Shown one piece after another: positions 22,197 to 63,234 of a DNA stretch of 64,000 nt. The position numbers were made by a program, and so were the translations under genes. The stretch lies in assembly GCA_047459655.1 (NCBI GenBank), contig JAJREF010000005.1:32001-96000 (forward strand), written 5' to 3'. A model generated the notes under the pieces. It made no database searches and was not told the origin of the DNA. It saw nothing but the letters and a program-made list of their open reading frames with translations. The first letter of the stretch is position 1. Each line of letters begins with the position of its first letter. Source of the DNA: Rhabdochlamydiaceae bacterium (GTDB taxonomy: Bacteria > Chlamydiota > Chlamydiia > Chlamydiales > Rhabdochlamydiaceae).

Positions 22197-22252
22197 CCTT
22201 CTAAACAATTGTGATATCGAGACCTTTTAATAATCCTACGACTTCCGGAAAG

Positions 22253-22413
22253 AGACCTCTGCATAACTCTGGTGAAACGAAAAAATCGAAGATTTTTTTG
22301 CAGATTTTTGTTTTTACATCGAAGACATACTCTAGAGAGTAGGCGAGATGTGAAAATAAACATCTGCAGAAAAAGCACGATTTGAGCGATTTACCAGAGT
22401 TATGCAGAGGTCT
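22253..22413. mobile_element. Palindromic element family A (RPE-like), copy 1, with 7-bp TSD CGGAAAG
   Basis: AGACCTCTGCATAACTCTGGT ... ACCAGAGTTATGCAGAGGTCT; CGGAAAG at 22246-22252 and 22414-22420. Confidence 0.9.
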
Positions 22414-22559
22414 CGGAAAGGAAAATTTCGCTTTTACAAGTTTATTTGTTGCCGGATCAATAGCGTAGTGCCTAGCTGTAGAAAAATCTGCTTTGCAGAG
22501 ATCACAGTTGTGGAATGTGGTTCCTGAGAAATCAACCTGGCTAAAATCTGCATTCTTAA

Positions 22560-22721
22560 GGAACCTCTGGACAAGTGCTTTGTCGGAGATTGCTGATCAA
22601 TTTTTCGAAGACGACGATTTTGGAGAACGCAGCTAACATGCAGAATGTTAGCGAGTTCGAAAAATCTAGTATTCGCAAAAATTGGCGGCAAGATTCGGCA
22701 AATGACTTGTCCAGAGGTTCC
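22560..22721. mobile_element. Palindromic MITE family B, copy 1, with TTAA TSD
   Basis: GGAACCTCTGGACAAGT ... ACTTGTCCAGAGGTTCC; central GCTAACAT-N5-ATGTTAGC. Confidence 0.9.
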
Positions 22722-22969
22722 TTAAGGCAGGTATTTGTAAAATAGTTCTCTCTTGGCTGACTGCTAGTGAAAGCTGTATTCTTCATATCGAGATCTGAGA
22801 AGTTGCAGCTCTGAAATGTACAGTTTGTAAAAGAGGCGCCATCAAATGATTTTTCTGAGAAATTTTCCGATTGGAACGTTTTTTGTTCTGTAGACTCTTT
22901 CATTATACCTGTTGCGCTGTTAATAAAAAATTTAATTCCAGGAACCGTGTAATTAAGAACTTGCCACCC

Positions 22970-24952
22970 TCACATCAATAAAAGTTCTTGGTACTGACGC
23001 ATGAGGTCGCGGAACCGTGCGGCATCTTCGAAACGGAATTCTTTAGCAGCGCGTTTCATTTCACTTTCATACTCTTCCACTTTTTGCATCGCTTCTTCAT
23101 GCGTAAGATGGGGAGGTACATCTTCTTTCTCTTCTTTCAGGGTATCGACCACTTCACCGAAGGTTGTAGCGAGATCTTCAGCTGCAAGGCGTTTAACGGT
23201 TTTAGGAGTGATGCCGTGTTTTGTGTTATACTCTTCTTGGACCACTCTACGAGCTCTTGTAATGCTGAGTGTTTGCTGGATTGACTTGGTAATCGTATCA
23301 GCATACATGACAACTCTGCCGTCTAAGTTACGGGCAGCTCTACCGCAGGTTTGAATGAGGGCTGTCTCGCTGCGTAAAAAACCTTCTTTATCAGCATCTA
23401 AAATAGCAACGAGTGCAACTTCAGGAATATCGAGACCTTCTCTAAGGAGATTAATACCTACTAAAACATCTACAACACCGAGGCGGAGGTTATTGATGAT
23501 CTGCACGCGCTCTAAAGTATCTATGTCAGAGTGGAGGTAGGTTGCTTTTACACCGATATCTTTGAGGTACTTAGTGAGATCTTCAGAGAGTTTTTTAGTG
23601 AGCGTTGTGACCAGCACGCGCTGTTTTTTCTGTATTGCTTGTTGAATTTCTTCCAGACAATCATCGACTTGATTCGTAGCGGGACGAATATCGATCACAG
23701 GATCTAACAGGCCCGTAGGTCTAATGATCTGCTTAACGACTTCTCCTTCTGCTTCTTGCACTTCCCAAGCACTTGGGGTCGCAGAGACATAGATCACTTG
23801 ATTGATATGTGTATAGAACTCTTCGAACTTAAGCGGACGGTTATCAAAGGCAGAAGGAAGCCTAAATCCAAATTCAATCAGGGCTGTTTTTCTGGCCCTA
23901 TCTCCATTGTACATCGCGTGTACTTGAGGGATCGTCTGGTGAGACTCATCCACAAATAAGAGAAAGTTCTTAGGAAAATAATCGATCAGGCAAGAGGGGG
24001 GATCTCCTGCTGATCTATCACTAAAGTGGCGCGAGTAATTTTCTATCCCCTTACAAAATCCAATTTCTTTGATCATCTCAAGATCGTATTTTGTTCTTTC
24101 CTGGATGCGCTGCAGTTCGATGAGCCTGTTTTCTTTTTCAAAGAGGGCTGCTCTCTCTTTAAGCTCTTCCTGAATCCTACGGATAGCATCAAAGCGCACC
24201 TCTTCAGGCGTCACATGGTGAGATCCTGGGAAAATGGAAATTTGCTCGAGCCGTTTTTTGACACCCCCGGTGAGGGGATCAATCGCGCTGATGCGATCAA
24301 TTTCATCTCCGAAAAATTCTATGCGGTAAGCAACCGACTCTTCGTACGCTGGCATCACTTCTAAAACATCGCCTCTCACTCTAAACGTGGTTCTAGCTAA
24401 TTCAAAATCATTGCGCTTGTAATGCATTTGAACAAGATGAAAGAGAACATCATCACGTCTTTTTTCCTCTCCTACCTTAATCGTAAGCTGCATTTTTCTG
24501 TAGTATTCAGGAATCCCCAATCCATAGATGCATGAAACAGAAGAGATAATAAGCACATCATCCCTTTCTATGAGAGAGCGCGTAGCAGAAAGACGCATCC
24601 GATCGATTTGTTCATTGATCGCCATGTCTTTTTCTATGTAGGTATCAGTTCTAGCAATATAGGCTTCCGGTTGGTAATAATCGTAGTAAGAAACAAAATA
24701 TTCAACCGCGTTGTCTGGGAAAAATGACTTGAACTCCTGATAGAGTTGCGCTGCCAGTGTCTTGTTGTGTGCTAAGATGAGGGTAGGTTTATTGACCTTA
24801 GCAATCACATTGGCCATGGTGAATGTCTTCCCAGAGCCCGTGACACCCAAAAGCACCTGAGCTTTCTTATCATGGAGAACGCCGCTGGCCAGCCGTTCAA
24901 TGGCCTCAGGTTGATCTCCTTTCGGGGTCATATCTGTATGCAGTTTAAACAT
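22970..24952 (-). CDS. uvrB: Excinuclease ABC subunit B
   Basis: [49 protein letters not shown]-terminal UVR domain. Confidence 0.98.
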
Positions 24953-26153
24953 ATATCATGGTAGACAACTGGAAAAAGAAAATGAAAAGGGCAATAGCCA
25001 TCGTTATTATAAGTAGAGGTTTTCCTCCCTGAACACGGTAAGGGGATTGAGCATTTTTATAATACCTTCCTATCCAAACCATCATAACAGGAAGAACTCC
25101 AAAAAGAAGAACAGCACATATACCACCTGCAAAATTGAGCGCTCTGATAAAAAGATGGGGATAGATGAGGGCGCACAGAAAAGGGGGAACAAGAGTGAGC
25201 AAACAAATGAAAAAGTTTTCACACTGCTTTTTCTGAACTTTCAGAGCATCCGTTAGAAAGTGTACGAGTGATAAGGTCTGAGCCAGGAATGATGTAAGGA
25301 GTGCAAAAAAAGCAAGCCCCTCTGCAAATGTGCTGACCCAAGAAATACCCAAAACACCTGCTACCGCATCAGAAGCCTGCCTACCCGCCTTCCAACTTTC
25401 CATAAGACCCCACCTCCCATCTATTGGAACAATCCCCAGCACAATGACTTCCCAAATAAGATAGACAATAAGAGCAAAAAGACTACCTGAAAATAAAATA
25501 GACCTTACCCTTTTAAGATCCCCTTTCATGTAAGTTACTAACGTGGGAATCATATTATGGTAGCCAAATGAAACGATCAAGATGGGCAAGGAAAATAACA
25601 TGTATCCTGGATCTGCTCTTAAAAGCTTCTCTGGATGAATATATTTAAAGCCTAAAAATACAAGAGCTAAATATGTCCCAATTTTGCCAAACATGAACAC
25701 GCGGTTCCAATGGTCTACCATTTTTGTGCCTCGGTAAACAATCCACCCACAAAGGCCTACCAAGATCACAGACCCTACCCACGCAGGAATGCTCGTTGCA
25801 AATAAAAATCCAAAATATGTCGAGCCTAAACTCCCACTACCAGAAATATAGGCAACCAGAAGGGAGTAAAAAAGAAAAAGGTAAATAGTTCCACATAAAA
25901 CCTTCCCAAATTTTCCAATAGCCTGCTCTGCCATCGATGTAATATTAGCCCCCTCTTTGCACCACCCATTTGCTTCCAAAAGAAGTAGCGCGGTGACTTT
26001 CATAAAAGCCCAGGCTAAAATAAACATGAATAGAGAAGGGATGAACCCCGCGATGCCCGTTAAAATAGGCAGCGCTAACATGCCAGCTCCAATACAACTT
26101 CCCCCTACAAGAAGAAGACCTCCGATATAACTCCCTGGTTTTTCTACCGCCAT
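24945..26153 (-). CDS. tyrP: Aromatic amino acid permease (TyrP/Mtr family)
   Basis: [26 protein letters not shown], multiple TM helices. Confidence 0.8.
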
Positions 26154-27792
26154 TATATCATCTCTACATGCTGAACTTTCGCAGCCTTTCTTTTTTCTTG
26201 CTCTAAACGACCCAACTTACACCCTTCAAAATTCACAAATTTAAAAAATCGCTTAAATTCAGGAATCACTTCAGAAACCTGTCTTGCTAATTCTTGGGCA
26301 ATGTGTCTGTACCCTGAATGCCCTTGTGGAGAAGATCTAAGCTCACACAGCCACTGAAGCGACCTTAAATTCACGTGGAAATACCAATGAATATTATATG
26401 CCATAGGAACAACATACTGAGCCTCTTCAGGAAGCTCTCTTGCAATAATATCATATGCTTTTTTTGTCTCATCCATCGCACGAACATATTCTTCTTCCAG
26501 GGGAGTTCCCACTATTTCTTCAGGAATATAATATCCAAAATCGCAGGTAAGAAACTGCCTTTCTTGCGTGAGCATTCGGTGGCGTTGAAGGTCTCGATAG
26601 ACGCCAAAATCAGACAAAATATCAAACGTAAATGTTGCGTGCTCAAGAGCTCTTGGAGATTTATGTCTTCGATTTTCACGATGATTACACCCTCCATCTA
26701 AAATAGCCTCCAATTCCTCTTTGGGAAGTCTTCGACAATACTCTTGCAATTCTAGCAAGCTGACATTGCTATGATCAAATAGAAGCGCGGCAGCTACCTG
26801 ATAAAGACTGTCTGGATCGTAAGATGTTAACTGAACACCGGGAGTTTTCATTTTTTCGAGAAAAATAGAGTGTTTTTCGCTAAGAGCCTTAAGGTCGGCT
26901 TCTGTTTCCTCTTTAAACAAACTGAAACTTTTTTGGTGCCTGTGGCTAACGTCTACACGTGTTACAAAAGAAGGAATTTCCTGAGAAAGCTCATGGTGTA
27001 TTTTTTTTCCTAACTTTTGAAGTTCAGAGAAATTATGGCAATGCAATTTCTGAATCAATCCTTCAAAAAATCTCCCGTTTCCGTACATCCCCATATTCGT
27101 CAATGTGCTAGCAGGAAGTAGCCCTCTTAAACAGTCGAGGACTTTACACCGGAGAGAGGCTGTATAAGGTCCTACTGCCTCATTCTCTCCTCTAGGAATT
27201 TGTTTTTCCATGATTGTTGTGAGAGGAGGAATCAGCCTTGAATAGGTTTCAAAAAGAGCATTACAAGCATCTAAATAATAGTGTCGATAAGCCGATGTCA
27301 TGATGACTTGCTCTCTATAGAAAAGATATTCCCCTTGATATTTTTGATCAAAATAAACATACCGCGTTGATTTCTCAAGAGGGGACCCTCCAATTCTACA
27401 ATCTTCCACCACCTTTGCAGCTAACATCGAAATGTTTTCCAAAGCAAGGTGAGCCCCCCCTAGTTCTCCAATTGAATCATCACCATATCCATCCAAGATA
27501 TTATCGTAAAATCGCTGAGCCTTTTTGATTGCTTGGCTTTGCTCGTCAATTTTTTCTTCATCTGTCCGACACACACCTGTAATCGCAGAAAAAGCGGAGT
27601 CTTCTTGTGATATAAATTCTTTCAATAAAAGAGAACGAAGCCCTAAAACAGATCTGGAATATTTAGAAAAAGAGCACCTTTAATTACCTCTGGCAAATTG
27701 CGCAATACAAAAACGTTACTTGTTGTACTCGTCACATAGCGTTTTAAAATTTTAATCTGGGCCTCTGAAAACTCCTCGTAATTCTCATCCAT
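26153..27792 (-). CDS. thyX: FAD-dependent thymidylate synthase, long chlamydial type (frameshift near 27660)
   Basis: MDENYEEFS...LPEVIKGALF; YGDDSIGEL, EKSTRY, RDLQRHR, ELRSSPQGH..YR. Confidence 0.9.
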
Positions 27793-27864
27793 AAAAAAAA
27801 TCCTCATTAGTGCCTTCAGGGTCTCACATCCCACCCTCTTCAATCAAGAAAAAAAACAATAGCC

Positions 27865-30020
27865 CTAATGCTTTCTTTCTAGGCGCAGTATTGGGTAGAG
27901 TTGCTTGCCTGTATCTGCAACAGCCCCAACATCGCGCAGCCATGCAGACATTGCATACCCAACTTGGTTGCGGCTACTTTTCTTAAGAAAAAAATCTAAG
28001 GGGATCACAAAAGAAAAACCTTTGTCATAGTAAATACGTCCATTGATTTTATCATGCCCGTTCGTAACTGTGCACCATAGAGAACTTCTAAAGCCACTAG
28101 GGAACCAGCGTGTAACCTCAAAACGAGCCCCTCTATCCTTTGCTAGAAATTGTCCCGCCATGATCTTGATATCTAAATCAAGGGGCTTAAACGTATAGTA
28201 AAGATCTAAAAAATACTGCACGCCTATAAAATGTTCATAGTGAGGAACCCTTCCATCCAACTTTCTTACTTTGTTTGTAAATCCCAGCCCATGGTAGCGT
28301 CTTTTAAATACAGTTGCCTCTTCCACCCCAATTGCCCAATTCGCTTGCACAGGACAGTATAAAAACTCTAAAGCCTCTCCACCATAGGCAGGCTCAAAAT
28401 ATCCACCTGCAGCTCTGGCAAACCATCCTTTCCCTAGGTTCCAGCTTTTTTGCAAGTAGGCCATTTCTAAAGCAACCGTATTGGTTTGATAATAGGAAAG
28501 AGAATCTGTGCGCACATTAAGGAGCTGAGACGGATTGATCCGGTCAATCGTACTTGCATGCGCAATACTCGACTTTACATCGTATGCAACCTGCGCTTGG
28601 TAGTAGACTTGATCTCCAAAATACCCCTCAGGCGTCAAAACCAACGCTAAGTTATACTTAATTTTTCCTGTAGAGCTTCCAAAAAAGTTAATCATCCGCG
28701 GTTTTAGAGAAATATCCCAAATCGCTTTTTTACGTCGAAAGAGCTGCTCTTCATGAGAAGGAGCAAAAATCACCTCTCTCATTGGAGAAAGCGTTTTCAT
28801 CTCGAAGGCGCCTATAAGCCTTTGACGGTACCGATAGAGATCTTCTGTGCGAAAAAAGTAACTGTGGCAAAGAAGGCCCGTTGCTTCCACAGTGACTACA
28901 ACATCTTTGATATCTGATGGCACAAGAGCTGAAAGAACTCTTTCTATTCTTTCTCTTAGCTCAGGTTCTTCTCTGTACGCATTATTGATAATTTTGATCC
29001 AAAGACTTTTCTCTTTGGTGAGATAAACGCTATAGAGATCGAGGCCTTGTCGTTCAAAAGTATAGGCTAGATCCTGCGCAAACACATACTTCGGGCGTAC
29101 AACACCAAGAGGCTCTGTATCCACAGGAGATTTATAAAGATGGGGATCGTCAACTTTTGCAAAAAAACCCTTGCTTGACCCAAAAGGATAGCGGAGCGAT
29201 CCCGAAGCGCCGAGATGACTTCCTCTTAAGTAATAGCCACTGACCTGGAGAGAGTCTCCCAGTAGGTAAGTAATCCCCCCATTGATCCGATGTTTTACAT
29301 CTCTTCCCTCTGGATGCTCTCCAATATTATTTTTGTAATCAACCCCGTCGTATTCTGCAACAACAGAAAGGTCTTTAATAAAAGGCACCCCTGTACGTCT
29401 AAAAGGAGTCCAAGCAAATCCCCCAAAAAGTCCCTTGAACCTCTTTCTTCCCCATCCAAGCGTAACTTCTAAGTTAGCCTCTACCCATTTTTGAGTGATT
29501 ACTGCGTACTCCGCGTTGAATCTCTTAGTTCCTATAAAATCATCCAGTCCTATTGCAAAAATAGGAAACATGGGAAATCCATCCCCCGGAAGGTTAAAAG
29601 CTAGTTTGACATTCCCTGTGCGCTCTGCGTCATCTCCAAAACCTTCAGAGCCAAATGTTGGCTCTAATATACCCTTGTAAACACGGTATGTCCCAGAAAG
29701 CTCAACGTGTTCAAAGAATTGAAAATTTAAACCGTAGACATTGTAGGGATGTACTCTTGCAGCCCCAATGCCGATTTCCCCTTCTTGCGCCATCCGCGCA
29801 GAAGGCATATTCCAATATCCCCCGACCATCGAGAAGTTGTAGAAAAAGGAAGATCATCCTTAAGCTGCTTGTCAATTTCCGACACGATTGCTAGATCGCG
29901 GAAAAGATTTGCCCCTTCGTCTGCATGCGAAATAGAAGAAGCAAAACAAAAGCAGCAAATTTGTGCAAAAAAACATAATCGATAGCGCGCACAAACCTTG
30001 TTTTGAAAAGCAATCATCAC
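27865..30020 (-). CDS. YjbH-like outer-membrane protein (frameshift near 29845)
   Basis: GGYWNMPSARM, GLDDFIGTKRF, GWG, GQFLAKDRGAR; N-terminal part lies in ORF 29727..30020. Confidence 0.75.
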
Positions 30021-30110
30021 AGCCTTAGATCAGGCAATTGTACAGAGGCTCTCAAATTTTTTTCTATTTAAAAACTCACCCCAGAATTACATATTGAGAC
30101 CATTGAATAA

Positions 30111-30272
30111 GGAGCCTCTGGACAAGTGCTTTTTCGGATATTGCTGATCAATTTTTTGAAGACGACGATTTTGGGAAGCGCATCTAACATGCAGAATGTT
30201 AGCAAGTTCGAAAAATATAATATTCGCAAAAATTGGCAGCAAGATTCGGCAAATGACTTGTCCAGAGTTTTC
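30111..30272. mobile_element. Palindromic MITE family B, copy 2, with ATAA TSD
   Basis: Near-identical to 22560..22721; ATAA at 30107-30110 and 30273-30276. Confidence 0.9.
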
Positions 30273-30303
30273 ATAAGTGATCATGTTTGTAAAAATGCAC
30301 ATT

Positions 30304-30423
30304 AGACCTCTTCGATTTTCGCTTGCCCCCTATGGAACGTCCCGCATATGTGGGCTCGCTCAATTCAAAATCTTATCAAAATGTCCTACTTTTTCAAAAC
30401 ACGCTGACTTAGTGCAACGGTCT
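30304..30423. repeat. Degenerate AGACC...GGTCT-ended palindromic element
   Basis: TAGACCTCTT at the left end, CAACGGTCT at the right end, internal hairpin CCCGCA-TA-TGTGGG. Confidence 0.45.
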
Positions 30424-30515
30424 TATATTAATCCAACTTATCCCCTTCATTTAAAATTAAACTATACACAATTTCAATGAACTTGGTATGATTTCGATCT
30501 CAACAGGAGTCTCTT

Positions 30516-33500: not shown

Positions 33501-33700
33501 GTGCAGAAGAAGCAAGGATTTTAAAAGAAAAAGCTGCCGATCTAGCCACTTTGGAAGGAAGGCTTGCAAATGCACCAGCAGATACTGTAATTGTTACCTC
33601 TATAGAACAAGATGACGGGACTTGTGCAGTTTTCTTCAGGACAATGATCCATGGAAGAAAACTCAACCTAGAAGTAGCCGATATGAATCTCGTTGTCTAA
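30516..33700 (+). CDS. Large hypothetical protein: degenerate NB-ARC-like N-terminus, helical/TPR-like middle, unknown C-terminus (split into 30516..31559 and 31679..33700)
   Basis: KVFWL, CLFVISD, HMMITSR resemble STAND NTPase motifs; no clear Walker A. Confidence 0.5.
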
Positions 33701-33778
33701 TACCCCCCAAGTTAGATATACCGCATTAATTGCAAATGGGGAAGGTATTAGGTTAATACAAGATGCGGTATAAGCTAA

Positions 33779-33941
33779 CGAGCCTATGGACAAGTGCTTT
33801 TTTCACATATTGCCGATCAATTTTTCGAAGACAACGATTTTGGAGGACGCAGCTAACATGCAGAATGTTAGCAAGTTCGAAAAATCTAGTATTCGCAAAA
33901 ATTGGCAGCAAGATTCGGCAAATGACTTGTCCAGAGGTTCC
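33779..33941. mobile_element. Palindromic MITE family B, copy 3, with CTAA TSD; followed by the left-end remnant of another copy (33946-33970)
   Basis: Near-identical to copies 1 and 2; CTAA at 33775-33778 and 33942-33945. Confidence 0.9.
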
Positions 33942-33983
33942 CTAAGGAGCCTATCGACGAGCACTTTGTCACAACGTCTAATC

Positions 33984-34845: not shown

Positions 34846-34855
34846 AAAATCTCCT

Positions 34856-43607: not shown

Positions 43608-45073
43608 TGTCAACGCAAAATAGAAATGTCCGCTTTTCTCCAATTTAGAAATGTCCTCTTTGGATGTTCTGATCTTCATTGGACTTGTCCGTTTTTTATC
43701 TAAAATACCCATTTTCAAAAGCTCTTCTCTTATCTCCAAGGGTGACTCCTTGAAGGTTTTTGAGGTTTTTTGTTTATCCAATTAAGTGCTAAATCTATTT
43801 CTTTGGACATCACAATTTTCCCTTGCGGTTCTTCCCCATATATCTTGTATTTTAACTCCTTGCCCTTATACAGCACTCTTACCCGTCCATTGAGATCTTC
43901 TAGAAGCATGACTTTTGCTTTCCTTAGAGTGTATGATGATCTTTCACTATCGATCTGATAAAGACTGTTTTTGTATTGGAAGCTTAAGTTTTTAGAGAGA
44001 CATCGGATTTCCTGGTAACTGAAAATCTCTTCTAAGTTCTCTTCTGGTTTTAAAGCTCGATGAGCATCTTCTGCGTTTCTAGGAGCTACGGCAAATTTTT
44101 TGTTATACTTCTCTATGAACTCGGGAATCCATTCATTTGCCTTTTCAATAGTTGAAATATTTTTTTCTCTCATCTCCTTGACTAAACGATCTTGCAATGT
44201 TTGATTGGCTTTTTCAACTCTTCCTTTTGCCTGGGGTGTATTGGCACAAATGAGCTTGATATCGAGTTTTTTTAGGACTCTTCCAAACTCTGTCACTCCA
44301 TTACCAGATACAGCTTCTTTGTGGTTGACTCTAAAAACTCCATATTTATCGCTGTAGAAAGCAAGTGGTTTTCCACATCTCTTTAGATACCTTTTTGTCG
44401 CTTTAAAATAAGATTCTGTTGTTTCACCAAGAGAAAAAAACAGCTCGACAAGTCTACTAGTTGCATCATCAATGTATACTAAAAGGGTACACCTGGGTCC
44501 TCTATTTTCAAACCAGTCATGGGGAGATCCGTCTATTTGTACAAGATCTCCATACTGACTCCTTCTTGGTCTCATCGGGTGGATAACTGCCTTTTTAGCT
44601 TTTTTAGGAGACCAAATATTTTCTTCTATCATCCATTTCCTAAGCGTCTCTATAGACAATGTAAGCTTATGTTTTTCTTCTAACTTTTCTTGAGCTAACG
44701 TAGGGCCATAATCTGCATAATGAGCGGAAATCAGCTTTAGGACTTGTGATCTAAAAGCTTCTGTTAACCTGCGATTACTAGGCTGCCCTCTCTTTTTGGA
44801 AACTAAGCCAGCTTCTCCATGCAGTTCGTAAGCTTGTTTTAAACGTCTAACTTGTCTGGCTGTTATCCCCAGACGTTGTCCCACTTCTATCTGGGAAAAG
44901 CTTTTTCTTTTTAAATTGCGCATCATTTCAACTCTTTCTAATTCTCTTCTGCTCATAGTTATCAACTCCTTCACTCTCACCTCCTTTCAAAAACAAATTT
45001 GAATGAGGTCAGTATCTTCAAAAGAGGACATTTCTATTTAGCAGAAAGAGGACATTATCATTTTGGGCTAACA
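43608..45073 (-). mobile_element. IS1202-family (ISNCY) insertion sequence with 16-bp TSD
   Basis: TGT...ACA ends with doubled AATGTCC subterminal sites; CTTTCTGAATCACTCC at 43592-43607 and 45074-45089. Confidence 0.92.
43730..44980 (-). CDS. DDE transposase (IS1202/ISNCY)
   Basis: HTH, QIDGSPHDWF, IDDATS, YSDK, PQAKGRVEK.NQTLQDRL, HPWR. Confidence 0.95.
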   Translation of the reverse strand: MRVKELITMSRRELERVEMMRNLKRKSFSQIEVGQRLGITARQVRRLKQAYELHGEAGLVSKKRGQPSNRRLTEAFRSQVLKLISAHYADYGPTLAQEKLEEKHKLTLSIETLRKWMIEENIWSPKKAKKAVIHPMRPRRSQYGDLVQIDGSPHDWFENRGPRCTLLVYIDDATSRLVELFFSLGETTESYFKATKRYLKRCGKPLAFYSDKYGVFRVNHKEAVSGNGVTEFGRVLKKLDIKLICANTPQAKGRVEKANQTLQDRLVKEMREKNISTIEKANEWIPEFIEKYNKKFAVAPRNAEDAHRALKPEENLEEIFSYQEIRCLSKNLSFQYKNSLYQIDSERSSYTLRKAKVMLLEDLNGRVRVLYKGKELKYKIYGEEPQGKIVMSKEIDLALNWINKKPQKPSRSHPWR

Positions 45074-47952: not shown

Positions 47953-48424
47953 CTGCAGTACTGGATTGACGGATATAACTTTCTTTTTCGCATTACAAAA
48001 GACTACAAGACCCTCCAGCGCCAAAAGAGTCAAATCTTAAATTCTCTAGAGGCCTTTGTTGATGCCTTTCATCTCCACCTTACACTGATCTTCGATGGCA
48101 AGCATAAAGCTCCTGCAGAAGCCATTCGAGGTCATCTCCGCAAGATTGAAATCGTCTATACACACGAAAACCAAAGTGCTGATGACTATATTATCGAACA
48201 GATCGAATACCATCCTAAACCTACCCAGATTGTCATCGTCTCCTCAGATCGAGAAGTGCTTGGCAAGTCAAAACAATTAGGCGCTAAAACACAAACCATC
48301 GAAGAGTTTCTTTCCTTTCTACTCAAAAAAAGAAAAAAAGGAAACAAGACCTGCTCCCTCCTTCCGCGACACCGACTTTCAGATCGAACGCTTGCGCAAA
48401 ATCTTCGAAGACAAGCTCCAATAG
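47953..48424 (+). CDS. NYN/YacP-like nuclease-domain protein (missed as a whole by the ORF track; CTG first codon; frameshift in poly-A near 48335)
   Basis: LQYWIDGYNFLF..LIFDG..QSADDYI..IVSSDREV. Confidence 0.75.
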
Positions 48425-48492
48425 ACCTCTTTCGAAATTATAATGGCCTTTATTTAAGATTATTTTTCCGCTAGTTGGAAGAATAAGGCGCG

Positions 48493-50021: not shown

Positions 50022-50097
50022 AGAGGTAGTTGCAAAACTCAGGTTCAGTCAAAATAATCCCGAAATTCGACGAACCCTGAGTTTTGCAACTACCTCT
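50022..50097. repeat. 76-bp hairpin with perfect 22-bp arms (mini-MITE or terminator)
   Basis: AGAGGTAGTTGCAAAACTCAGG ... CCTGAGTTTTGCAACTACCTCT. Confidence 0.7.
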
Positions 50098-50199
50098 TTA
50101 ATCCGCATTATTTGGAAAACTTCAATTTTGTAAAGAAATTTCTTTAAATTGTAAGAAGCGCCTTAAATCTATACGGGCAGACAGAATTAAAATAAATAC

Positions 50200-51455: not shown

Positions 51456-51577
51456 ATTATTATTTCTAGTATCTTCGAAACGAAAGTATACACTATGTAG
51501 GAAAAGGCGCGCTAGGGTAAAATGCGCTCGAAGCCGATTTTTAGATAGGCTCCTATTTTTGCTTTAGGAATAAACTT

Positions 51578-52885: not shown

Positions 52886-53487
52886 AAATATTATTCTCTA
52901 ACCCCATCCTGTTTTCTCTCTGCTTAATTCCTACCTTACTTGCCCTCTGGGGCCTCCAAATAAAAAAACAAGATTTAAAAATTGCCCAAATCAAAATTGA
53001 AAAAATCCATAAAAAGGCGATCGAAATCGATAGGCATAATGAAATCAATGCATCCATTTTTGCTCAAATCAAAGAGAGCGATCCTAAATATTTGGAAAAA
53101 GAACTAGCAACGATCTCGCTCTTAGAATCAGAACTAAGACGCCTAGAAACCATCTTAGTCCACCATAAAGATAATGCTATTTTGCACCGCAGGTTAGATT
53201 TTTTAAAAAGTGGGAAAAATAATTTTTCCCTCAACGAAGCAAAAAGAAGAACAGGAGACCAATTCCAAGAAGTCGATATCTCTTTAGCCCACCCCGTAGA
53301 AATGGATGATGAAGATATAAAGCATATGCTAACCTCTATCGAAGGAATCCCTATTAACAACTACCCGACCAAACAAGGGCGCCCACAACTATTAATCCGC
53401 AATTTTGATTTAGTCAAAGAAACCAATAATTTAGGGGAAGATATTTTCTTAGTAAAATGCAATCTCCTTCAAAGAGAGTCTTTATGA
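52882..53487 (+). CDS. Conserved hypothetical membrane-anchored protein
   Basis: N-terminal TM helix plus coiled coil; overlaps both neighbours. Confidence 0.6.
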   Translation: MKILFSNPILFSLCLIPTLLALWGLQIKKQDLKIAQIKIEKIHKKAIEIDRHNEINASIFAQIKESDPKYLEKELATISLLESELRRLETILVHHKDNAILHRRLDFLKSGKNNFSLNEAKRRTGDQFQEVDISLAHPVEMDDEDIKHMLTSIEGIPINNYPTKQGRPQLLIRNFDLVKETNNLGEDIFLVKCNLLQRESL

Positions 53488-54761: not shown

Positions 54762-54894
54762 GCAGAATATATGGGTGCAGAAATAATCCCTGTCCTGAGG
54801 TAGCTCCGTTCAGCCTATTCCAAAATGCCTTTGTAAAATCTTATCTATACAATTCTGATCGTCGCTGGTATAAGAAGGAGCGAGGTCTTATAAT

Positions 54895-56613
54895 ATGGGT
54901 TTCTTCGGCCAGCAGAGATTTGCATCTTTGACACGTTTTCTTTCCCGTTTGCCAGGCTTTTCAAAGCCTGATAAACATTCGCTGCACTTTCTAAATATTG
55001 CCCAGTTCATGGGTGTTCTTAACGACAACATCTTCAAGCTTGTGATCGCCTTTTTATTAATTGGGATATATGGAAAGGAAGATGCAAGCACGATCTTGTC
55101 TGCTGCAGGAGCTATTTTCGTTATTCCCTTTCTCTTGTTCTCTTCGGCAGCGGGCGTTCTAGCCGACAGGTTTAGTAAACAGAGACTGCTCATCTGGATG
55201 AAATTTGCAGAAATAATTATCATGTCTTTGGCTATTATTGCTTTTGCTACAAAAAGTGTATGGGGCAGCTACACCCTTTTATTCCTTTTATCAACGCATA
55301 GCGCTTTGTTTGGCCCATCAAAGTATGCGATTATCTCTGATCTTGTCCCCGCTGATCGGGTATCAAGAGCAAATGGACTCATTACATCTTTTACCTACCT
55401 AGGCGTGATTATAGGAACCTTTCTTGCCTCTTTTTTGACGGAGTGGACCGATAAAAACTTCGTGCTGGTTGCCTTCTTTTGTCTCGGCATTGCGGGCATT
55501 GGCTTTATCAGCACATTCGGGATTAAATACACAAGTCCGCAGGGGTCGGATAAGAAAATCAAGATCCTTTTCTTAAAAGAGATCTCAGCAACACTCTCAT
55601 TTTGTAAAACAAAACCCCACCTTTTAATTTCCACCCTAGGATCCTCTTATTTTTTATTCACAGGAGCATTTGTTCAGTTGAATGTGATCCCCTTTGCAAT
55701 TGATGCGCTTCATCTGAATGAGGTAGCGGGAGGATATCTTTTTCTTTCAACAGCTTTAGGGATTGCCTTAGGGGCTTATTTAGCAGGGAAAGTTTCCCGC
55801 GTAAGAGTGGAGCTTGGAGTTTCGTGTATTGCAGGTATTTTAATTGGCGTTTGCCTTTTGCTTCTTGCTCTTTTATCCCACACCTTGCTCTCTGTGATAT
55901 TGCTTCTTGTACTGCTTGGAATCTTTGGTGGATTTTTCATTGTTCCTTTTGACTCTTTCATCCAAATTTTTAGCCCGAGTGAAAAAAGGGGACAAGTGAT
56001 TGCTGCGACTAACTTCTTAAGTTTTTGTGGCGTTTTAATGGCATCTGTTACTCTTTATATCTACAGTCAATGGATAGGTTTATCCCCCGAGCAAGGCTTC
56101 GGCATTACAGGATTGATTACGATTTTGTTTTCTATTTTTCTGATTCTTAGACTGTCCGATCTTTCTCTTTCTTTCTTTTCTAAATATTGCCTTAAACCTT
56201 TATTCCGTCTTAAAACAGAAAATCTGGATCTTTTTGAAAAACATTCTCACGTTGTACTTGTCTTGCGGAAAGCAAATTGGCTAAAAGCGCTCCTCCTTTT
56301 ATCTGTTGCTCCTAAAACACATCTTCTCATCTCTCAGAAACAAGCACCTCTCTTTCGATGGTTTAATCACCTTTTTTTCTCTATTCATGTAATCCCTTCT
56401 GATGCTACGTTAAAACCTTTACTAGAACAATCGAAAGCGCTTGTGTCTGAGGCTATTCATCCTTGTATCTTGCTAAATACAAGCTATATTCCTACCTCTT
56501 TTGACAAAACATCTTCCTTGATCTCTTTTTTTAATTTTAATTCGATCCATCTCATCTATGTCGATGTTGTTTTTGGACTAAGAACCACGGTCCATTTTTC
56601 TAAAAAGGCCTAG
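54895..56613 (+). CDS. MFS transporter (LplT-like) with C-terminal soluble domain
   Basis: AQFMGVLNDNIFK, AGVLADRFSK, SALFGPSKY. Confidence 0.85.
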   Translation: MGFFGQQRFASLTRFLSRLPGFSKPDKHSLHFLNIAQFMGVLNDNIFKLVIAFLLIGIYGKEDASTILSAAGAIFVIPFLLFSSAAGVLADRFSKQRLLIWMKFAEIIIMSLAIIAFATKSVWGSYTLLFLLSTHSALFGPSKYAIISDLVPADRVSRANGLITSFTYLGVIIGTFLASFLTEWTDKNFVLVAFFCLGIAGIGFISTFGIKYTSPQGSDKKIKILFLKEISATLSFCKTKPHLLISTLGSSYFLFTGAFVQLNVIPFAIDALHLNEVAGGYLFLSTALGIALGAYLAGKVSRVRVELGVSCIAGILIGVCLLLLALLSHTLLSVILLLVLLGIFGGFFIVPFDSFIQIFSPSEKRGQVIAATNFLSFCGVLMASVTLYIYSQWIGLSPEQGFGITGLITILFSIFLILRLSDLSLSFFSKYCLKPLFRLKTENLDLFEKHSHVVLVLRKANWLKALLLLSVAPKTHLLISQKQAPLFRWFNHLFFSIHVIPSDATLKPLLEQSKALVSEAIHPCILLNTSYIPTSFDKTSSLISFFNFNSIHLIYVDVVFGLRTTVHFSKKA

Positions 56614-58576
56614 AACCTATGAGCAGCTCTTGTCCCCATAGGTATTGTTAATTTAATAACTAATATTCCTTGATCATTAGCTTTTACAAACACAGAATCT
56701 CCATCTACTACTTCCTCACAGCGAATGTATTCTACGTTAGGGTTGGTCTTTCGATTTAAAATACACAAGACTAAACATTCAATCAATCTAGGAAAGCTTT
56801 CTTCTTTTAACGCGTCTTTCTGAACCTCTCTTGTCAATCCAATACTATCTGGAATACTCATTGAAGTGATTGTCATCCAATAGCTGCTTTCTGTAGGTTT
56901 GATTTCAAAGTGTTTAAGGGTAGAGATATCCACTTTGATATTTTCTGATTTAGCTAGCTCAAGCAGTCTTTCCAATGTAAGTCCTTCAGGAATAAAAATA
57001 CGATGACGGGTTTCTTCTTTTTTCTTCCAAAAAAAGGACAGGGGCCTTGAAGCCAAGGGTCCATATCGGGAGGTGGAGCTAATTCTGAACATATGTTCCA
57101 ATCTTTTGGAAGTATATGACAAATAGGAGGTAATTCCGAGATCTCTAATCGTGATGAATAACCTCTTGGTCTTTCCAATTGTGCATTTAAATCATCTATT
57201 TTTTCACGCTGTTTAATTAAGAGCTCCCAGAGGCGCATTTGGGCTTGCTGTTGAAAAGACAACTGTCTCATCTCGGGATCTATTTTCTTTATTCCATCGA
57301 CACCCCTAACAATTTTCCCAATATCAACACCTGCCAATCTCAAGGCCTCATAATAATAACCAGCGCTTTTAGGAAAGCTCTCTAATCCATAAAAAGCCTC
57401 CGCAAGAGCCATAGCCATCTCAAAAGTCTCACATTCTTTATAACATGCCTCTGCGTCATCTACCTGCCCATGTGCCATATAGATCGCCGCCAAGCAACTC
57501 CACAACTCTTTCGTAGCACCTTTAGGAACACTGGTAACAAGATCTTTAGAAATCTGCGGTGCAGATTTTGGCCCTTTTATTGGCACAATGTCGCTTTTTG
57601 CGCTTCCACCACAGCCTTGTTGTTCTAGCTCTTTTAACCACCTAAAACCATTTTTGCTATCACCTTGCCTGAAATACCAACTAACAACTTCCTGACACAG
57701 GTGGGATGAATAACCTAAATGGAGCAACATCTCATAAAGCTGAATCAATGATGCTGAATCAGAAGGAATAGGATGGGCTTGGAGTAGGGAGAGCAATATT
57801 TTTTGTATTTCTCTATTTGTTAGGATATCTGGTTTCCTTTCTTCCTTTGCAATGAGCACATCAACCCACCTATCCATAAAAGAGTCTGGATATTTCTTGT
57901 GCGCTTCATCACAAAACCCTCGAGCCTCTACAAATTCCTTTGCTTTAATAGCTTCTAAAGAGCCTTTTATTAAAACATGTGCCTTTTCAGGATTAGTTTT
58001 CATAATCGAAGCCAGCTTATGGTACCCTTGCCAATAGGTTGGCACATATGTCAACAAATGTTGGTAGTAACGAATAGCTTCTATTGAGCCCTCTATTCTC
58101 AGCTCTTTTAATGCCTGACCTGTTAAGGAAATGGCACTCTCTGACTTTTCATTTAAAACGTGCGCGATTACGAGAAGATAAAAAACATTGAAATCTTTAG
58201 GGGCTTTACTTAGTAAAGCGATTACACCTGGAAAATCTTTTTCTGTTTTCGAAATGGCATCTTTTAATAATGGTTCTTTATCTATGGGGCTGAGACGACA
58301 AGCATGCTTTAATTCTTCTAAAAAGCCTGCTTTGTCTTTTAATGGAGAAGAAAGATCCAAGCAATAATTAGGTGGTAATTGACATTTAGCTAAAGCACCC
58401 AAAGGATCCTCTTTTGCTTTTTCCTTTATAAACCCAACCTCTTCACATTTTTTTTCTAATAAAATTTTCTGGAAAACATTAAAAATCCTGAGGAAAAAAC
58501 CCTCTTTCTCTTCTGCCAATTCAAAACGATGTGAAAATGTAAGAAAACAATAATAACCTGTTGGAACCCTTTCCAT
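56610..58576 (-). CDS. Hypothetical helical-repeat protein (frameshift near 57030)
   Basis: ORFs 56954..58576 and 56610..57122 overlap across a homopolymer run; TPR-like helices. Confidence 0.5.
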
Positions 58577-58648
58577 TGCTACCTCTTCGAGGTATTATTC
58601 ACCGGTCAGAATTTAAAAAAAGAATTTTTATAAAAATTCAACTTTACC

Positions 58649-60459
58649 CAGCAATTCCGAATGAAGAAGCAATACGAGAGAGGTTTTCTGTTTAAAAATA
58701 AGAATATTACTTTTCTATAGACAAAAGCCAGTCACAAGAGTAAAAATATCCCTCACAGCTCTTACATCATGGAGGACAACCCTTATGCCTGGCTCATCTC
58801 ATGTTACCAAACAGTCAAAAAAAAGCAACTTCTTAAAAATTACTTTGTCTATTCCAGCTAACTCTGCCGATGTAGCTGGTTGGATAAGATTTCTTCGTCA
58901 AATGAAGGTCTCGAAAATATTTGCAAGGCTAACCGATAAAAGACAAAAAGGAAAAATCTGCTATTCATCTTCCTCTCTGATGCACTGGGCTCTTTCGGCT
59001 TGTGCTTTTAGACTGGGGTCTAAAAATGCTCTACAAACAAGTTTAGACCACCTTTCCTCAGAACAAAGCCAAGGCATGTTTAACTGTCTGGAGATTGATA
59101 ACAAAAGGTTCCCCCATTCATCAACAGTTGACCATTTTCTTTCACACACTTCTTTGGAAGAACTACAGGCTATCCCTTTCACCCTCATTAAGCAATTAGA
59201 AGAAGGCAAGTTCTTTTACAATCACCTCGAGCTTCTTCCTAATAATTCTCTAACCATCGGCTGTGATGGGTTTTGGCTACATACCTACGATCATCCTCAT
59301 GCGGCTAACGAAGATGGGTTGAATGCTTGTCCCTACTGTTTACCAAGAACCTATTTTAAAGGAACGGACAAAGAGACAACTAGGTGGGTTCATGTGATGA
59401 TCACCTTTGTTCTCATTTGCCAAGGACTCACTTTACCGTTGTTTGTGCATCCTTTAAAAGCAGGAGAAGTAGATCCCTGCCAATCAGATGAAAAATTAAA
59501 GGAAGAGTCTGAGCTCAAAGCGGCTCATATGATTTTGCCCCTGATTCGAGAGAAGTTTCCCAGAGCTAAAATAACATTCTTAGGAGATGCTCTTTATGCC
59601 AACAGACCGATAATCCGTCTTTGTGAGCACCTTAATATCGACTACCTGATTGTTCTCAAAGACAATAACTTGAAGAAGCTCAATTCCAAATGCCAGGAGC
59701 TTTCTAAAACGGACATCTATCAAAAATCTTATCAATTTAGAGACCAATTACCTTGCAAAGAAGGAACTCTCCATAGAGAGGCCTTCTGGTTTAATAATGT
59801 GGCAGCTGGAGAAGAGGTCTTTACGAATGTTTTGAAATATCAAGAGACTATTCATAAGAGCAATGGCGCATCTCAAGCAGGTTATGAAGGAGCTTGGATT
59901 AGTTCTCAAAAAATAAAAAATACCAACTGCTTTAAGAAAACAAAGATCGGACGCATGCGTTGGAATCAGGAAGATTTTCACAATACAGGCAAAAACAGAG
60001 GGTACGAGATGACACACGATATGGCAAGAACACGGCCCCATCTTCTCATAGCTTGGAAGACCATCAGTTTTATAGCTTACTTTTTGTTCGAGCTTTTTCA
60101 ACATACAACTTTTGCTTTAACAGCTCTTAAAAATCGCTCTCTCAAACGATTTGCTCAAAATCTGTTTGAACAGCTTGTTCATATGAGCTGGGGTATTATT
60201 TCCCAGTCACCCATCCTCAAAAAACAAAAAGTTCAATTTCGGTATCGATTTGATTCATCCTAGATAGAGAAACATAAAAAAAAGGAGGTGACAGACAACA
60301 TAAAAAAACAAGTTAAAAACGATTCAGAAATAGTGAATGGGGAGGAACGTCTTTTTGCTTTCGTTTAAAAAATTTTATTTACGCTTGTTACTTTGAAGAT
60401 GACATATTTTCAATATGTGTGCTTTTTCTGAATGAAGCTTGCTTCATTCACAATTGCTG
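58649..60459 (+). mobile_element. Insertion sequence (DDE, IS4-like signature) with 9-bp TSD
   Basis: Inverted repeats CAGCAATTCCGAATGAAG / CTTCATTCACAATTGCTG; AACTTTACC at 58640-58648 and 60460-60468. Confidence 0.9.
58785..60263 (+). CDS. DDE transposase
   Basis: GCDG, GDALYAN, RMRWNQEDFHNTGKNRGY. Confidence 0.85.
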   Translation: MPGSSHVTKQSKKSNFLKITLSIPANSADVAGWIRFLRQMKVSKIFARLTDKRQKGKICYSSSSLMHWALSACAFRLGSKNALQTSLDHLSSEQSQGMFNCLEIDNKRFPHSSTVDHFLSHTSLEELQAIPFTLIKQLEEGKFFYNHLELLPNNSLTIGCDGFWLHTYDHPHAANEDGLNACPYCLPRTYFKGTDKETTRWVHVMITFVLICQGLTLPLFVHPLKAGEVDPCQSDEKLKEESELKAAHMILPLIREKFPRAKITFLGDALYANRPIIRLCEHLNIDYLIVLKDNNLKKLNSKCQELSKTDIYQKSYQFRDQLPCKEGTLHREAFWFNNVAAGEEVFTNVLKYQETIHKSNGASQAGYEGAWISSQKIKNTNCFKKTKIGRMRWNQEDFHNTGKNRGYEMTHDMARTRPHLLIAWKTISFIAYFLFELFQHTTFALTALKNRSLKRFAQNLFEQLVHMSWGIISQSPILKKQKVQFRYRFDSS

Positions 60460-61065
60460 AACTTTACCAGTGGCAAGCTCATAATAAGCTCCCACTATTT
60501 TAAGTTTTTTACTTTTCAAAAGCGCTCCAATGACACGGCTTTTCTTCAAAGTTTTGATTCCATTTGTAACATTTGCTTTGATGGCATTTGTCAGTGGATC
60601 ACCTGTCATGTTTTTTGTTTCATCGACAGCTTCTTGAATATAAGGAGCGATACTCTCTATATCTTCATCACCAGATCCAGATAACACAGCGGAAACGGCG
60701 CCACACTTTTGATGGCCTAAAATAACGACAAGAGGAGTATCAAGCTTGTCTACTGAATACTCGATACTGTCTAGCTCGATGGGGCCTATGACGTTGCCAG
60801 CAACCCTTACAACAAATAGATCGCCGATTGTTTGATCAAAGATAATTTCAGGAGAGACTCGAGAATCAGAGCACCCCACGATCACAGCAAAAGGCATCTG
60901 CTTGACAAACGTCTCCTCTCTTTTTCTTCTAAATCATGTGAATGGGTAGGTGCTTGGTTAGCATACTTTTGATTGCCCTCCATCAATTTCTGTAAAGCTA
61001 CATCATATTTAGCAGGCCCTGCAAAAATAGTGAGGGGAAAAGAGAGCAAAAGAGAGAAGTTTCAC
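60448..61065 (-). CDS. Beta-class carbonic anhydrase with signal peptide (frameshifts near 60915 and 61035)
   Basis: LQKLMEGNQKY upstream; GCSDSRV, RVAGN, LGHQKCGAV. Confidence 0.88.
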
Positions 61066-61087
61066 TGTAATAGCCCTTCTGGAGGAC

Positions 61088-61489
61088 CTACATCTTCTTT
61101 TGGCTGTTCATCAGAGAAACTGTCATCATCCTGGAAAGGCTTGCTTCCTTTTTGGGAACTTTACAGGCTCTAGCCCCACCGCCTGACATTGCTTGTGCAA
61201 GGCCACCAGGAGAGACATTGCTACATGTTGAAAAACTTTCTCCATCCATGCAGTACCATTGGACAGTGTAGGGCGTGCGCGACTGGTTCGGCGCCCCTAC
61301 CCCTGAATTGTAATCATTCCACGACATCGTTTGACGAGGATTGACGACCACCTCTCCTAAAGAAGCGCCATCAGAAGCCTGAACAATAGCTTGCAGCTTA
61401 TATGTTGAATCATTCACAAGGCGGACGCTTCCTGCATGAGCTAACTGACAACACAACAGAGCGATTATAAAACTTATACTTTTCGTCAT
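61088..61489 (-). CDS. Secreted hypothetical protein
   Basis: Signal peptide ending AHA; Cys-containing beta-rich body. Confidence 0.6.
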   Translation of the reverse strand: MTKSISFIIALLCCQLAHAGSVRLVNDSTYKLQAIVQASDGASLGEVVVNPRQTMSWNDYNSGVGAPNQSRTPYTVQWYCMDGESFSTCSNVSPGGLAQAMSGGGARACKVPKKEASLSRMMTVSLMNSQKKM

Positions 61490-63234
61490 TTCTTATCTTT
61501 AACAATAAATGCCCATTTAAAGTCAACACTCCCTGTCGTAGAAACAGCGACATCTCTCACTCTTTCACTTGCTAAATAGAGCATCGTATAATGGAATAAG
61601 GGAATGATGGCCATCTCATCGATTAAGAGAGATTCACTCTCTTTTAAAACTTTTTTGCGCGCGTCAAAATCAGACAGAGAGAGCGCCTGATTGAGGAGTT
61701 CTTCATATTTAGGATTTTCCCACGATGTGTGGTTGGATCCTACTTTCTTATTTTTAAAAATTTCTAAAAAATTAAGAGGGTCGTTGAAATCAGCTGTCCA
61801 AGATCCAATAGCTATCTGAAAATCTTTTTTTGTCAGACGATCATAAAAAGTTTTCCGCTCCATCGGCTCAATTTTAACATCGACACCTAGAGTAGATGTC
61901 CACTGCGCTTGCACTGCTTGCGCAATCAGGTTGTTTCTCTCGCTTGTAATGTAGAGCAGCACAATACAAGGAAGGTCTTGGAGCGACAACCCTTGTTCTT
62001 TTAAAGCTTGGTTAAAACAGCGTTTAGCTGTTTCAACATCTCCATCCTTGAAATAGGGAGCATCTTGCAGCCCCATCGCTGTTGGAACAAGGCCTGTTGC
62101 CGCAATTTGTTTCCCCTGCAGCACATGGTCGATGATTTCTTGTCGGTTGATAGATAAACCAAAAGCTTTCCGCATCAAAGGATGGTTAAAAGGGGCTTTG
62201 TTTGTGTTTGTATTGAAAAAATAAGTCGCTAAAAAGGGTTTGGTATGAAACTCTTTTCGCTGCCTGAGCTGAGCAATCGCATCGAGAGGAAGCACAGAGA
62301 GGGGAGATCCTGCCCAATCAAGCTCTTTTTTTTCATACATCTTAAATTCTGTATCTTCACTGACCATGACTAGCTGTATCCCATCTAATTGAACATGCGG
62401 GGCATCCCAATAGTGGCCATTCTTAACAACTTCAAAACAATCAGAATGCTTCCATTCTTTCGGTAGGAAAGGACCGTTACAAATGTAGGTTGCTGCCTCA
62501 TCTGCCCAATGGGAGTTCAGCTCATCTGTTTTTTGATGAATAGGAAAATAGATGGGAAGCGCTGTTAATTCTAAAAAGTAGTGCGTGGGTCTTTCTAGTT
62601 CAACTTGTAAAGTTTTTGCATCGAGCACCTGTACCCCAAGATCGTCTACAGGTAGCTGCCCTTTCTTGATCAGTTCGGCATTTTTAATAGGGTATAGCTG
62701 AAAAGCTCTATCAGAAGGGAAGCTAGGACTTAGAGATTTTTTCCAGGCGTATGCAAAATCATCCGCTGTTACACGCTCCCCATTACTCCATTTGCAATCT
62801 CTTAAATGAAACGTGTACATCTTTCCATCAGAGGAGATCTCTAATCTTTCTGCAACAGCTAACTGAGGTTGATCTTTCGGATCCATGCGCGTTAATCCAT
62901 CAAAACACATCTGGACAACTGTCTGTGATTGGAGATCTTTTGCTTTTCTTGGGTCTAATGTTTGAGGCTCGCCCCCAATATTTACCTTAAGCTGCTTCCC
63001 TTTTTGGGGTTGACAGCCTGTGGCTAAAAGAAGTACAAGGAAAACCCATGTGGTATATACTGAGAGACCTCTGCGTAACTTTAGTGAAGTGAAAAAATCG
63101 AAGATTTTTGTTTTTATATCGAAGACATACTCTAGAGAGTAGGCAAGATGTGAAAATAAACATCTGCAGAAAAAGCACGATTCGAGCGATTTACCAGAGT
63201 TATGAAGAGGTCTCTCTAAGAATGTTTTTTTCAT
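61486..63234 (-). CDS. oppA: Oligopeptide ABC transporter substrate-binding lipoprotein
   Basis: LLLATGC lipobox, EPQTLDP, YTFHLR..KWSNG..VTADDF, NGPF, WTADFNDP; family A element in-frame in the N-terminus. Confidence 0.92.
   Translation of the reverse strand: MKKTFLERPLHNSGKSLESCFFCRCLFSHLAYSLEYVFDIKTKIFDFFTSLKLRRGLSVYTTWVFLVLLLATGCQPQKGKQLKVNIGGEPQTLDPRKAKDLQSQTVVQMCFDGLTRMDPKDQPQLAVAERLEISSDGKMYTFHLRDCKWSNGERVTADDFAYAWKKSLSPSFPSDRAFQLYPIKNAELIKKGQLPVDDLGVQVLDAKTLQVELERPTHYFLELTALPIYFPIHQKTDELNSHWADEAATYICNGPFLPKEWKHSDCFEVVKNGHYWDAPHVQLDGIQLVMVSEDTEFKMYEKKELDWAGSPLSVLPLDAIAQLRQRKEFHTKPFLATYFFNTNTNKAPFNHPLMRKAFGLSINRQEIIDHVLQGKQIAATGLVPTAMGLQDAPYFKDGDVETAKRCFNQALKEQGLSLQDLPCIVLLYITSERNNLIAQAVQAQWTSTLGVDVKIEPMERKTFYDRLTKKDFQIAIGSWTADFNDPLNFLEIFKNKKVGSNHTSWENPKYEELLNQALSLSDFDARKKVLKESESLLIDEMAIIPLFHYTMLYLASERVRDVAVSTTGSVDFKWAFIVKDKK
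63065..63213. mobile_element. Palindromic element family A (RPE-like), copy 2, inside oppA
   Basis: Near-identical to 22253..22413 but with a 12-bp deletion. Confidence 0.9.

Follow-up and report, generated by a model that had tools for sequence, protein, structure and literature searches.

A palindromic repeat in a Rhabdochlamydiaceae genome is most likely an IS5-type MITE whose hairpin core carries different ends in related genomes

Introduction

[quoted passage not shown] The same sections describe YPAL as a repeat of approximately 168 bp with a 56-codon open frame, and in-frame fusion of MITEs to genes is well described in them and in the available portions of PMC3733652 and PMC1779305. 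Among Rickettsia palindromic elements (RPEs), which include RPE-1, nearly half of the copies are in-frame insertions, as summarised in the accessible text of PMC10969869, PMC2229807, PMC1779305 and PMC3733652. Here we analyse a stretch of 64,000 nucleotides, hereafter the window, from a Rhabdochlamydiaceae bacterium (assembly GCA_047459655.1, contig JAJREF010000005.1, positions 32,001 to 96,000) that contains two copies of a palindromic element termed family A. An earlier note on the window regarded this element as a peptide-donating selfish family resembling RPEs. Our analysis suggests that family A is most likely an IS5-type MITE. From comparisons of sequences we consider it probable that this 163-bp gene-less hairpin is moved in trans by a transposase of the IS5 family (presumably IS1106-like) and that its in-frame copies are chance survivors.

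Structure and copy number of the family A element

The family A unit is 163 bp long, has the ends GAGACC...GGTCTC with the terminal G and C counted in, and contains no gene; its sole open frame has no protein-family match. Copy 1 is located at 22252..22414 of the window (strand not assigned) and is bounded by GAGACCTCTGCATAAC-type terminal inverted repeats. It is flanked by 5-bp target-site duplications at 22247..22251 (GGAAA, plus strand) and 22415..22419 (plus strand), the left one being supported by the orthologous site without the insert in G002, a genome of the same genus. The copy forms a single extended, imperfect hairpin (z score -12.0 for DNA, -13.3 for RNA), and none of 200 shuffled sequences was equally stable. 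Its minus strand contains the tip motif GCCTAC-N8-GTATGTC and one stop-free frame that runs from RPL to RGL. The description of two copies with common ends and centre, in like orientation and with this minus-strand frame open in both, is confirmed. The original division into a 161-bp unit and a 7-bp duplication was dropped, since the duplication counts over 14 full copies fit a 163-bp unit with a 5-bp duplication better: the 5-bp duplication is exact in six of them and the 7-bp reading suits two. The net insert of 168 bp for copy 1 (163 + 5) is unaffected.

The source genome (G000, 1.61 Mb, assembly completeness 82%) contains 14 full and 7 partial copies with 72-96% identity. Family A thus combines the traits by which MITEs are recognised, being short and multi-copy, devoid of a transposase gene, and equipped with terminal inverted repeats and a target-site duplication. 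The positions of its insertions differ between species of the same genus: in G002 the orthologues of oppA, the pentapeptide-repeat gene, the RND adaptor gene and lptE all lack family A. Contig C4 and the region C1:651000-664000 of the source genome are diverged duplicates with many frameshifts, which suggests contamination or assembly indel errors; single-base indels in the element copies therefore need cautious reading.

IS5-type ends and transposases

Similar ends are widespread. A pattern scan of GTDB genomes for the two ends 137-167 bp apart found at least 133 loci in many phyla, and a scan of viral contigs found one element. Among the GTDB matches listed, the 5-bp duplication is exact in 79 of the 139 GAGACC-ended short elements. 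The interiors of these elements vary with lineage, and their lengths are bimodal (74 of the 139 elements at 139-144 bp and 47 at 157-161 bp). Helical phasing of repeat length, an idea taken from the accessible part of PMC3464196, was considered for these lengths; support for a 10.5-bp period is weak (uncorrected p of 0.07 and 0.03, with shortened windows), and this period is not claimed. Minimal GAGACC-ended versions of 35 bp (L035:1501-1535, with an exact 5-bp duplication) and 75 bp (L030:1501-1575) are present in G336.

Complete IS elements with the same ends provide candidate partners. Five genomes with GAGACC-ended elements were tested; three of them have IS5 elements that are complete, share these ends and have 5-bp duplications, and the other two contain one end or a nested form. 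GAGACC-ended IS5 elements of 1.17-1.28 kb with exact 5-bp duplications are present in G405, G406 and G409 and in G362, which belongs to the same family as the source genome. Among 30 IS5 loci taken from a panel of 401 chlamydial genomes, two, both in the family of the source genome, are GAGACC-ended; the 5-bp duplication is exact in one of them. The transposases within the GAGACC-ended elements score as NF033581 (IS5), and the ends of these elements, which we take to be members of an IS1106-containing IS5 subgroup, agree with family A at 14-16 of its first 17 bases. In the source genome itself, the ends of another MITE family, family B, match an IS5 element on contig C3, thus forming a cognate pair within one genome. 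The GGAACC-ended partner of family B is found at G000:C3:6644-7825 and C3:54551-55136; both copies have a stop near the 5' end, and the second is internally deleted.

An IS5-type transposase would bind both ends and insert family A with little regard to genes, and insertions that break useful genes would be purged. The copies that stay would be those in intergenic regions, those in dead genes, and about one sixth of the coding insertions, which use the single open frame. Such in-frame insertions would be best tolerated at protein starts.

Several observations weigh against this reading of family A. No GAGACC-ended IS was found in the source genome, 82% complete as assembled, and the mobiliser is therefore absent now or unassembled. 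For the commonest end type among the relatives described below, GAACCTATC, no partner was found among 8 DDE_Tnp_1 loci or 30 IS5 loci. The relatives themselves are the best-scoring matches and not a random sample, and this reading offers no function for their conserved tip motif. The predicted rate of in-frame survival, given below, rests on crude gene calls and 14 copies. Finally, oppA remained intact while copy 2 aged within it; together with the internal in-frame inserts in Ogt and MurD, this means that translated inserts are tolerated. ISAs1 was rejected as a partner of the GAACCTATC ends, as its matches in Nostoc are MITEs of 128-131 bp. GAGGGTG ends and family A ends gave no useful partner match on plasmids.

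A conserved hairpin core with different ends

When 128 genomes of the same family were searched in all six frames with the peptide profile, 9 contained weak relatives. These share the tip GCCTAC-N-GTATGTC and have different ends, with the exception of eight copies in G430 and a short hit in G336. Twelve tip-sharing elements align end to end. Covariation is observed in 43 of 54 pairs, with 142 two-sided and 13 one-sided changes; this predominance of two-sided changes fits arm-to-arm copying at the DNA level better than a selected RNA helix. A covariance model of the structure produced 1143 matches in 90 of 129 same-family genomes, with at most 22 candidates scored per genome. The model also scores unrelated 160-bp hairpins at 30-75 bits, so that 90 of 129 is an upper-end figure and our conclusions rest only on 120 motif-checked elements, retained from 129 loci around the best-listed matches.

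The ends of these 120 elements are of the GAACCTATC type (GAACC type) in 95 cases, AGAC..TT in 17, GAGGYA in three, GAGGGTG in one, and unassigned in four. The target-site duplication is 2 bp long in 72 of the 95 GAACCTATC-ended elements and 3 bp long in 13 of the 17 AGAC..TT-ended ones. The core of approximately 161 bp is more uniform: the left end and the tip motif are 69-71 bp apart, the loop has 8 bases in 108 of 124 cores, and the T- and A-tracts are fixed. Cores with different ends are 58-82% identical, including pairs at 80-82%, compared with a maximum of 53% for shuffled sequences. A tree of 64 of the 124 cores, in which 35 of the 95 GAACC-type elements were sampled, needs seven end changes where the minimum is four; it is based on few columns and has limited support. 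The core profile did not match the interiors of 17 sampled IS5 elements (best E 0.1), and the derivation of the interior from a partner IS by deletion, a common though not a universal trait of MITEs, was not found for family A.

Judged by these alignments, the hairpin core is older than its present ends, and within the family one interior is combined with at least five end types, three of which have duplications of 2, 3 and 5 bp. Arm-to-arm copying within the hairpin would alter both tips together, and by this route an element could switch to another transposase. We tentatively propose, at somewhat less than even odds, that family A represents a single branch of an ancient hairpin chassis, spread through the whole family and fixed in length at approximately 161-165 bp, which would have a conserved, protein-recognised tip and, by rewriting both its tips at once, would outlast the loss of any single transposase and hop between IS5-type and other transposases; RPE-1 would then be another chassis that rides short IS5 elements of approximately 0.9 kb with ends like its own. 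A second core with different ends is common to families C, D, E, K and M of the source genome, and another one to families F and G. Three recurring hairpin-tip motifs are present in MITEs of unrelated phyla (L056-L188 and L242-L370), with lengths near 141 and 160 bp.

It is unlikely that the core itself is the functional unit, serving as a site for a host factor or a single-strand-DNA enzyme (for example of HUH/RAYT type) or as an RNA-processing signal, with ends acquired secondarily and elements kept by the host for regulation. Such a role would explain why the tip and the tracts are near-invariant in sequence and position though the ends change, and why the core is absent from the 17 IS5 interiors; the duplication length, however, tracks the end type (2, 3 or 5 bp), as expected because DDE transposases read the ends. 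The tetranucleotide GTAG at the tip of one strand is the tag of repetitive extragenic palindromic (REP) sequences in the accessible text of PMC3733652, and a similar tip is found in 17 of 138 GTDB elements among the matches listed, all from Neisseriaceae records. Against this, the Y1 transposase (PF01797) was found in one of five element-rich genomes; neither the source genome, 82% complete, nor three of the four others gave a match. A selected RNA helix is also at odds with the covariation, which is almost all two-sided Watson-Crick, and with an Rfam scan of the element, which gave nothing above threshold and only sub-threshold matches to microRNA hairpins. Regulatory use by the host agrees poorly with sites that differ between species of one genus.

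Insertions in and near genes

Four of the 14 full copies touch genes and ten lie outside genes; at these ten, neither the analysis of frames nor Pfam searches of 45 segments flanking them detected an interrupted gene. The two window copies were initially both placed inside coding sequences, which is correct for copy 2 only. Copy 1 shares its reading frame with the final codons of a pentapeptide-repeat gene (22203..22903, minus strand), which is a pseudogene approximately 65-70 codons shorter than its orthologue in G002. This gene is stopped after 115 codons by a family B MITE (22560..22721, strand not assigned, 162 bp) that has GGAACCTCTGG ends and a TTAA duplication and is unrelated to family A. 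Copy 1 is downstream of this stop and is therefore not translated.

Copy 2 (63064..63214, strand not assigned, 151 bp) is a true in-frame insertion into the 582-aa gene of an oppA-type peptide-binding lipoprotein (61486..63234, minus strand). It occupies codons 7-58 in the n-region of the signal peptide and adds a net 156 bp, or 52 codons; the OppA orthologue is 89% identical and lacks the insert. Its 5-bp duplication has decayed, either copy being one base off the site inferred from the G002 orthologue. The loss of exactly 12 bp with the frame kept was correctly described; the missing stretch lies between two AAAAATCT repeats spaced 12 bp apart, and slippage between them accounts for its length. 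The native ribosome-binding site and ATG of oppA are upstream of copy 2, with no other in-frame ATG, GTG or TTG within the first 80 codons. If OppA is made, the copy 2 insert is translated with it. Lipoprotein processing removes the signal peptide, and the 52 extra residues would then likely leave with it.

The third gene-touching copy, on contig C1, lies at the start codon of the gene for an RND adaptor lipoprotein. Since the ATG is doubled in its target-site duplication, the native start comes after the element. The fourth, on contig C3, runs in the opposite orientation, has a stop and has entered lptE within its first codons. The first ten codons of lipoprotein genes thus hold three of the four gene-touching copies (RND adaptor at C1:313420, LptE at C3:66290 and OppA at C5:95064), a placement that both target bias and survivor bias fit.

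The earlier note proposed, in effect, a dedicated peptide donor, in which length, duplication and open frame are selected for tolerated insertion into genes and the peptide is a conserved protein module. We regard this as improbable. In its favour are the net length of 168 bp, a multiple of three, the fusion of three of the 14 full copies in the same frame (a small sample, of which one lies in a pseudogene and two at signal peptides) and an oppA start that is possible only upstream of the insert. The RPL frame, however, is the only open frame of copy 1, and any surviving coding insertion must therefore use it; an open frame is also found in 29% of dinucleotide shuffles. Simulated random insertion predicts 32% in-frame survivors, an expectation based on crude gene calls (75.5% coding) and of low power with 14 copies, and the observed three of 14 show no excess over it (P(<=3 of 14) = 0.29). 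The differences among the 14 copies are spread over codon positions 1, 2 and 3 without bias (62/64/65), and the lptE copy is reversed. The family A peptide was found in one protein only, the window OppA (1 of 6 and 1 of 2276 candidates), by word-index searches, which are weak evidence of absence.

The related elements provide a similar picture. All eight relatives in G430 keep an open RPL-type frame, but they are 165 bp long, hence not frame-preserving, and none is fused to a long open reading frame. Length plus duplication modulo three is distributed as 18/15/17 over 50 GAGACC clusters among the GTDB matches listed; one class is under-used in the set with 3-bp duplications (33/29/14), as a donor would predict, whereas the most abundant families do not preserve the frame (family B, 162 + 4 with 64 full copies in the source genome; GAACC type, 161 + 2), and an open frame is lacking in 67 of 95 GAACC-type copies. 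An apparent enrichment of open frames over base-level shuffles (30 of 50 vs 21) was rejected, as it mostly disappears with dinucleotide shuffles (19/33 vs 17.4 and 39/62 vs 34.1). Internal in-frame inserts are known in Ogt, MurD and an Mfd-like gene, and those in Ogt (L418:1501-1665 in G427, directly after the PCHR active-site motif) and MurD (L467 in G128) represent two of the 120 core-sharing relatives; they use different strands and encode unrelated peptides, and a third relative abuts a gene start.

We conclude that the peptide-donor claim largely reflects a survivor effect, and that the in-frame copies of family A are likely chance survivors, not the product of a peptide-donating design. 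A selfish palindromic chlamydial family and real in-frame insertions (OppA, Ogt, MurD and the Mfd-like gene) remain from the original proposal; donation as its defining behaviour does not.

Relation to RPE-1

Family A is not a member of RPE1: the TIGR01045 model had no match to its peptide in any of five genomes including G000, nor to the window peptides, with a positive control (L253) at 32.5 bits against the cut-off of 30. An NCBIfam scan of both peptides, which did not name the RPE-2 to RPE-5 or WPE models and ran without a positive control, gave no match at E<=10. Named Rickettsia RPE-1 DNA was not found on two Rickettsia plasmids.

A metagenome scan for AGAC..TCTT-type ends found 129 loci with 133 elements, 94 of them with 3-bp duplications. 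One of these elements passes the RPE1 cut-off over all 48 positions, and its AGACCTCTTTCGAAAC ends translate to RPL. Its interior is unrelated to that of family A (z -0.7, for this one metagenome element), and the suggested difference in internal sequence from RPE is thus upheld. The suggested likeness to RPE holds for the RPL and RGL tips, which are similar because related IS5-type ends are translated, and not for a shared peptide. The tip type of this element is found in 11 of 138 GAGACC-ended elements, among the matches listed, and in 35 of 133 AGAC..TCTT-ended ones.

The RPE1-scoring element has exactly the same 16-bp ends and 3-bp duplication as L574, a chlamydial IS5 of 0.9 kb, and nearly the same as five further IS5 elements; IS5 elements on plasmids are bounded by similar ends. 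We presume that the RPE-1 of Rickettsia itself bears such ends. This match to IS5 elements with intact ends points to a candidate enzyme, an IS5 transposase that may be the mobiliser of RPE-1-like repeats. The accessible part of PMC2229807 leaves open how RPEs move; it lists their duplication as unknown and gives TA at either terminus of a single copy, in keeping with IS5-type ends.

Other repeats and features of the window

A search with 20 seeds gave 253 matches to palindromic repeats, or 1.8% of the source genome; most multi-copy families are 161-166 bp long with 3-, 4- or 5-bp duplications. Further palindromic MITEs of at least six families (K, C, B, J, H and F) are located in the window at 18815-18976, 20602-20765, 30111-30270, 30269-30423, 33780-33941, 48422-48482 and 50022-50097. 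The insertion in the Mfd-like gene, named by eye, belongs to the sister family M (G000:C3:173199-173368) and adds approximately 56 residues in frame; a frameshift upstream in this gene may be an assembly error. The window also contains an ISNCY-family transposase (43730-44980) that is multi-copy and recently active in the genome, where a multi-copy IS4-like transposase is present as well. Two stretches (12135-12445 and 14018-14441) approximately 1.9-2.0 kb apart are 76-93% identical and form a local duplication. The one RNA run compared with the window covers only 62421-62656 and is uninformative on expression. The cut-off of NF004969, a chlamydial GreA-fusion model, is passed by one protein of the window, in line with a host that is very likely a chlamydia.

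Comparison with known systems

Peptide donation as seen here is ordinary, since in-frame MITE survivors are described in several bacteria. An interior that outlives and changes its ends conflicts with the usual view that MITEs are short-lived products of deletion bound to a single IS. The conserved tip motif offers a defined target for experiments. If true, the proposed hairpin chassis would identify the enzyme that spreads the protein-invading repeats of Rickettsia. In the genome studied here, palindromic repeats distort start-codon calls. Follow-up interest lies in the core with swappable ends and in the IS5 link to RPE-1-like repeats. Searches of the literature, subscription papers, the original RPE papers and supplements excepted, gave no account of such elements in chlamydiae, of RPEs with IS5 ends, or of MITE interiors shared between changing ends.

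Like REP sequences, REPINs and BIMEs with their RAYT enzymes, family A is a palindromic repeat with GTAG at the hairpin tip, and in-frame insertions are known for both (accessible parts of PMC3733652 and bioRxiv 10.1101/2021.07.10.451892). In contrast to the REP/RAYT systems, it has IS-type terminal repeats and end-specific duplications, and its GTAG is central and not terminal. The GAGACC-ended IS5 elements resemble family A in their terminal bases and 5-bp duplication; family A, however, has no transposase, is 163 bp long instead of 1.17-1.28 kb, and has a palindromic interior not homologous to the sampled IS interiors.

With RPE-1 family A shares a long imperfect palindrome (100-170 bp) with an open frame, an intracellular bacterial host, and in-frame insertions, including N-terminal ones. 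It differs in length and duplication (163 bp + 5 bp, compared with 144 bp + 3 bp for the RPE-1 type) and in the outcome of insertion, three of 14 copies being in frame and none shown within a mature protein, compared with the nearly half in frame reported for RPE families in the accessible summaries. The closest likeness is to the MITEs mobilised in trans, which are also 100-200 bp long, have terminal inverted repeats, a target duplication and a long stem-loop, and are mostly intergenic with occasional in-frame fusions. Unlike MITEs of the RUP/IS630 type, family A has an IS5-type partner and a 5-bp duplication in place of IS630 and TA, and unlike the MITEs listed above it has an interior that is not recognisably IS-derived and appears with at least five end types within one bacterial family. 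Family A thus behaves as a MITE does and in part as RPE-1 does; it belongs to the former and not to the latter.

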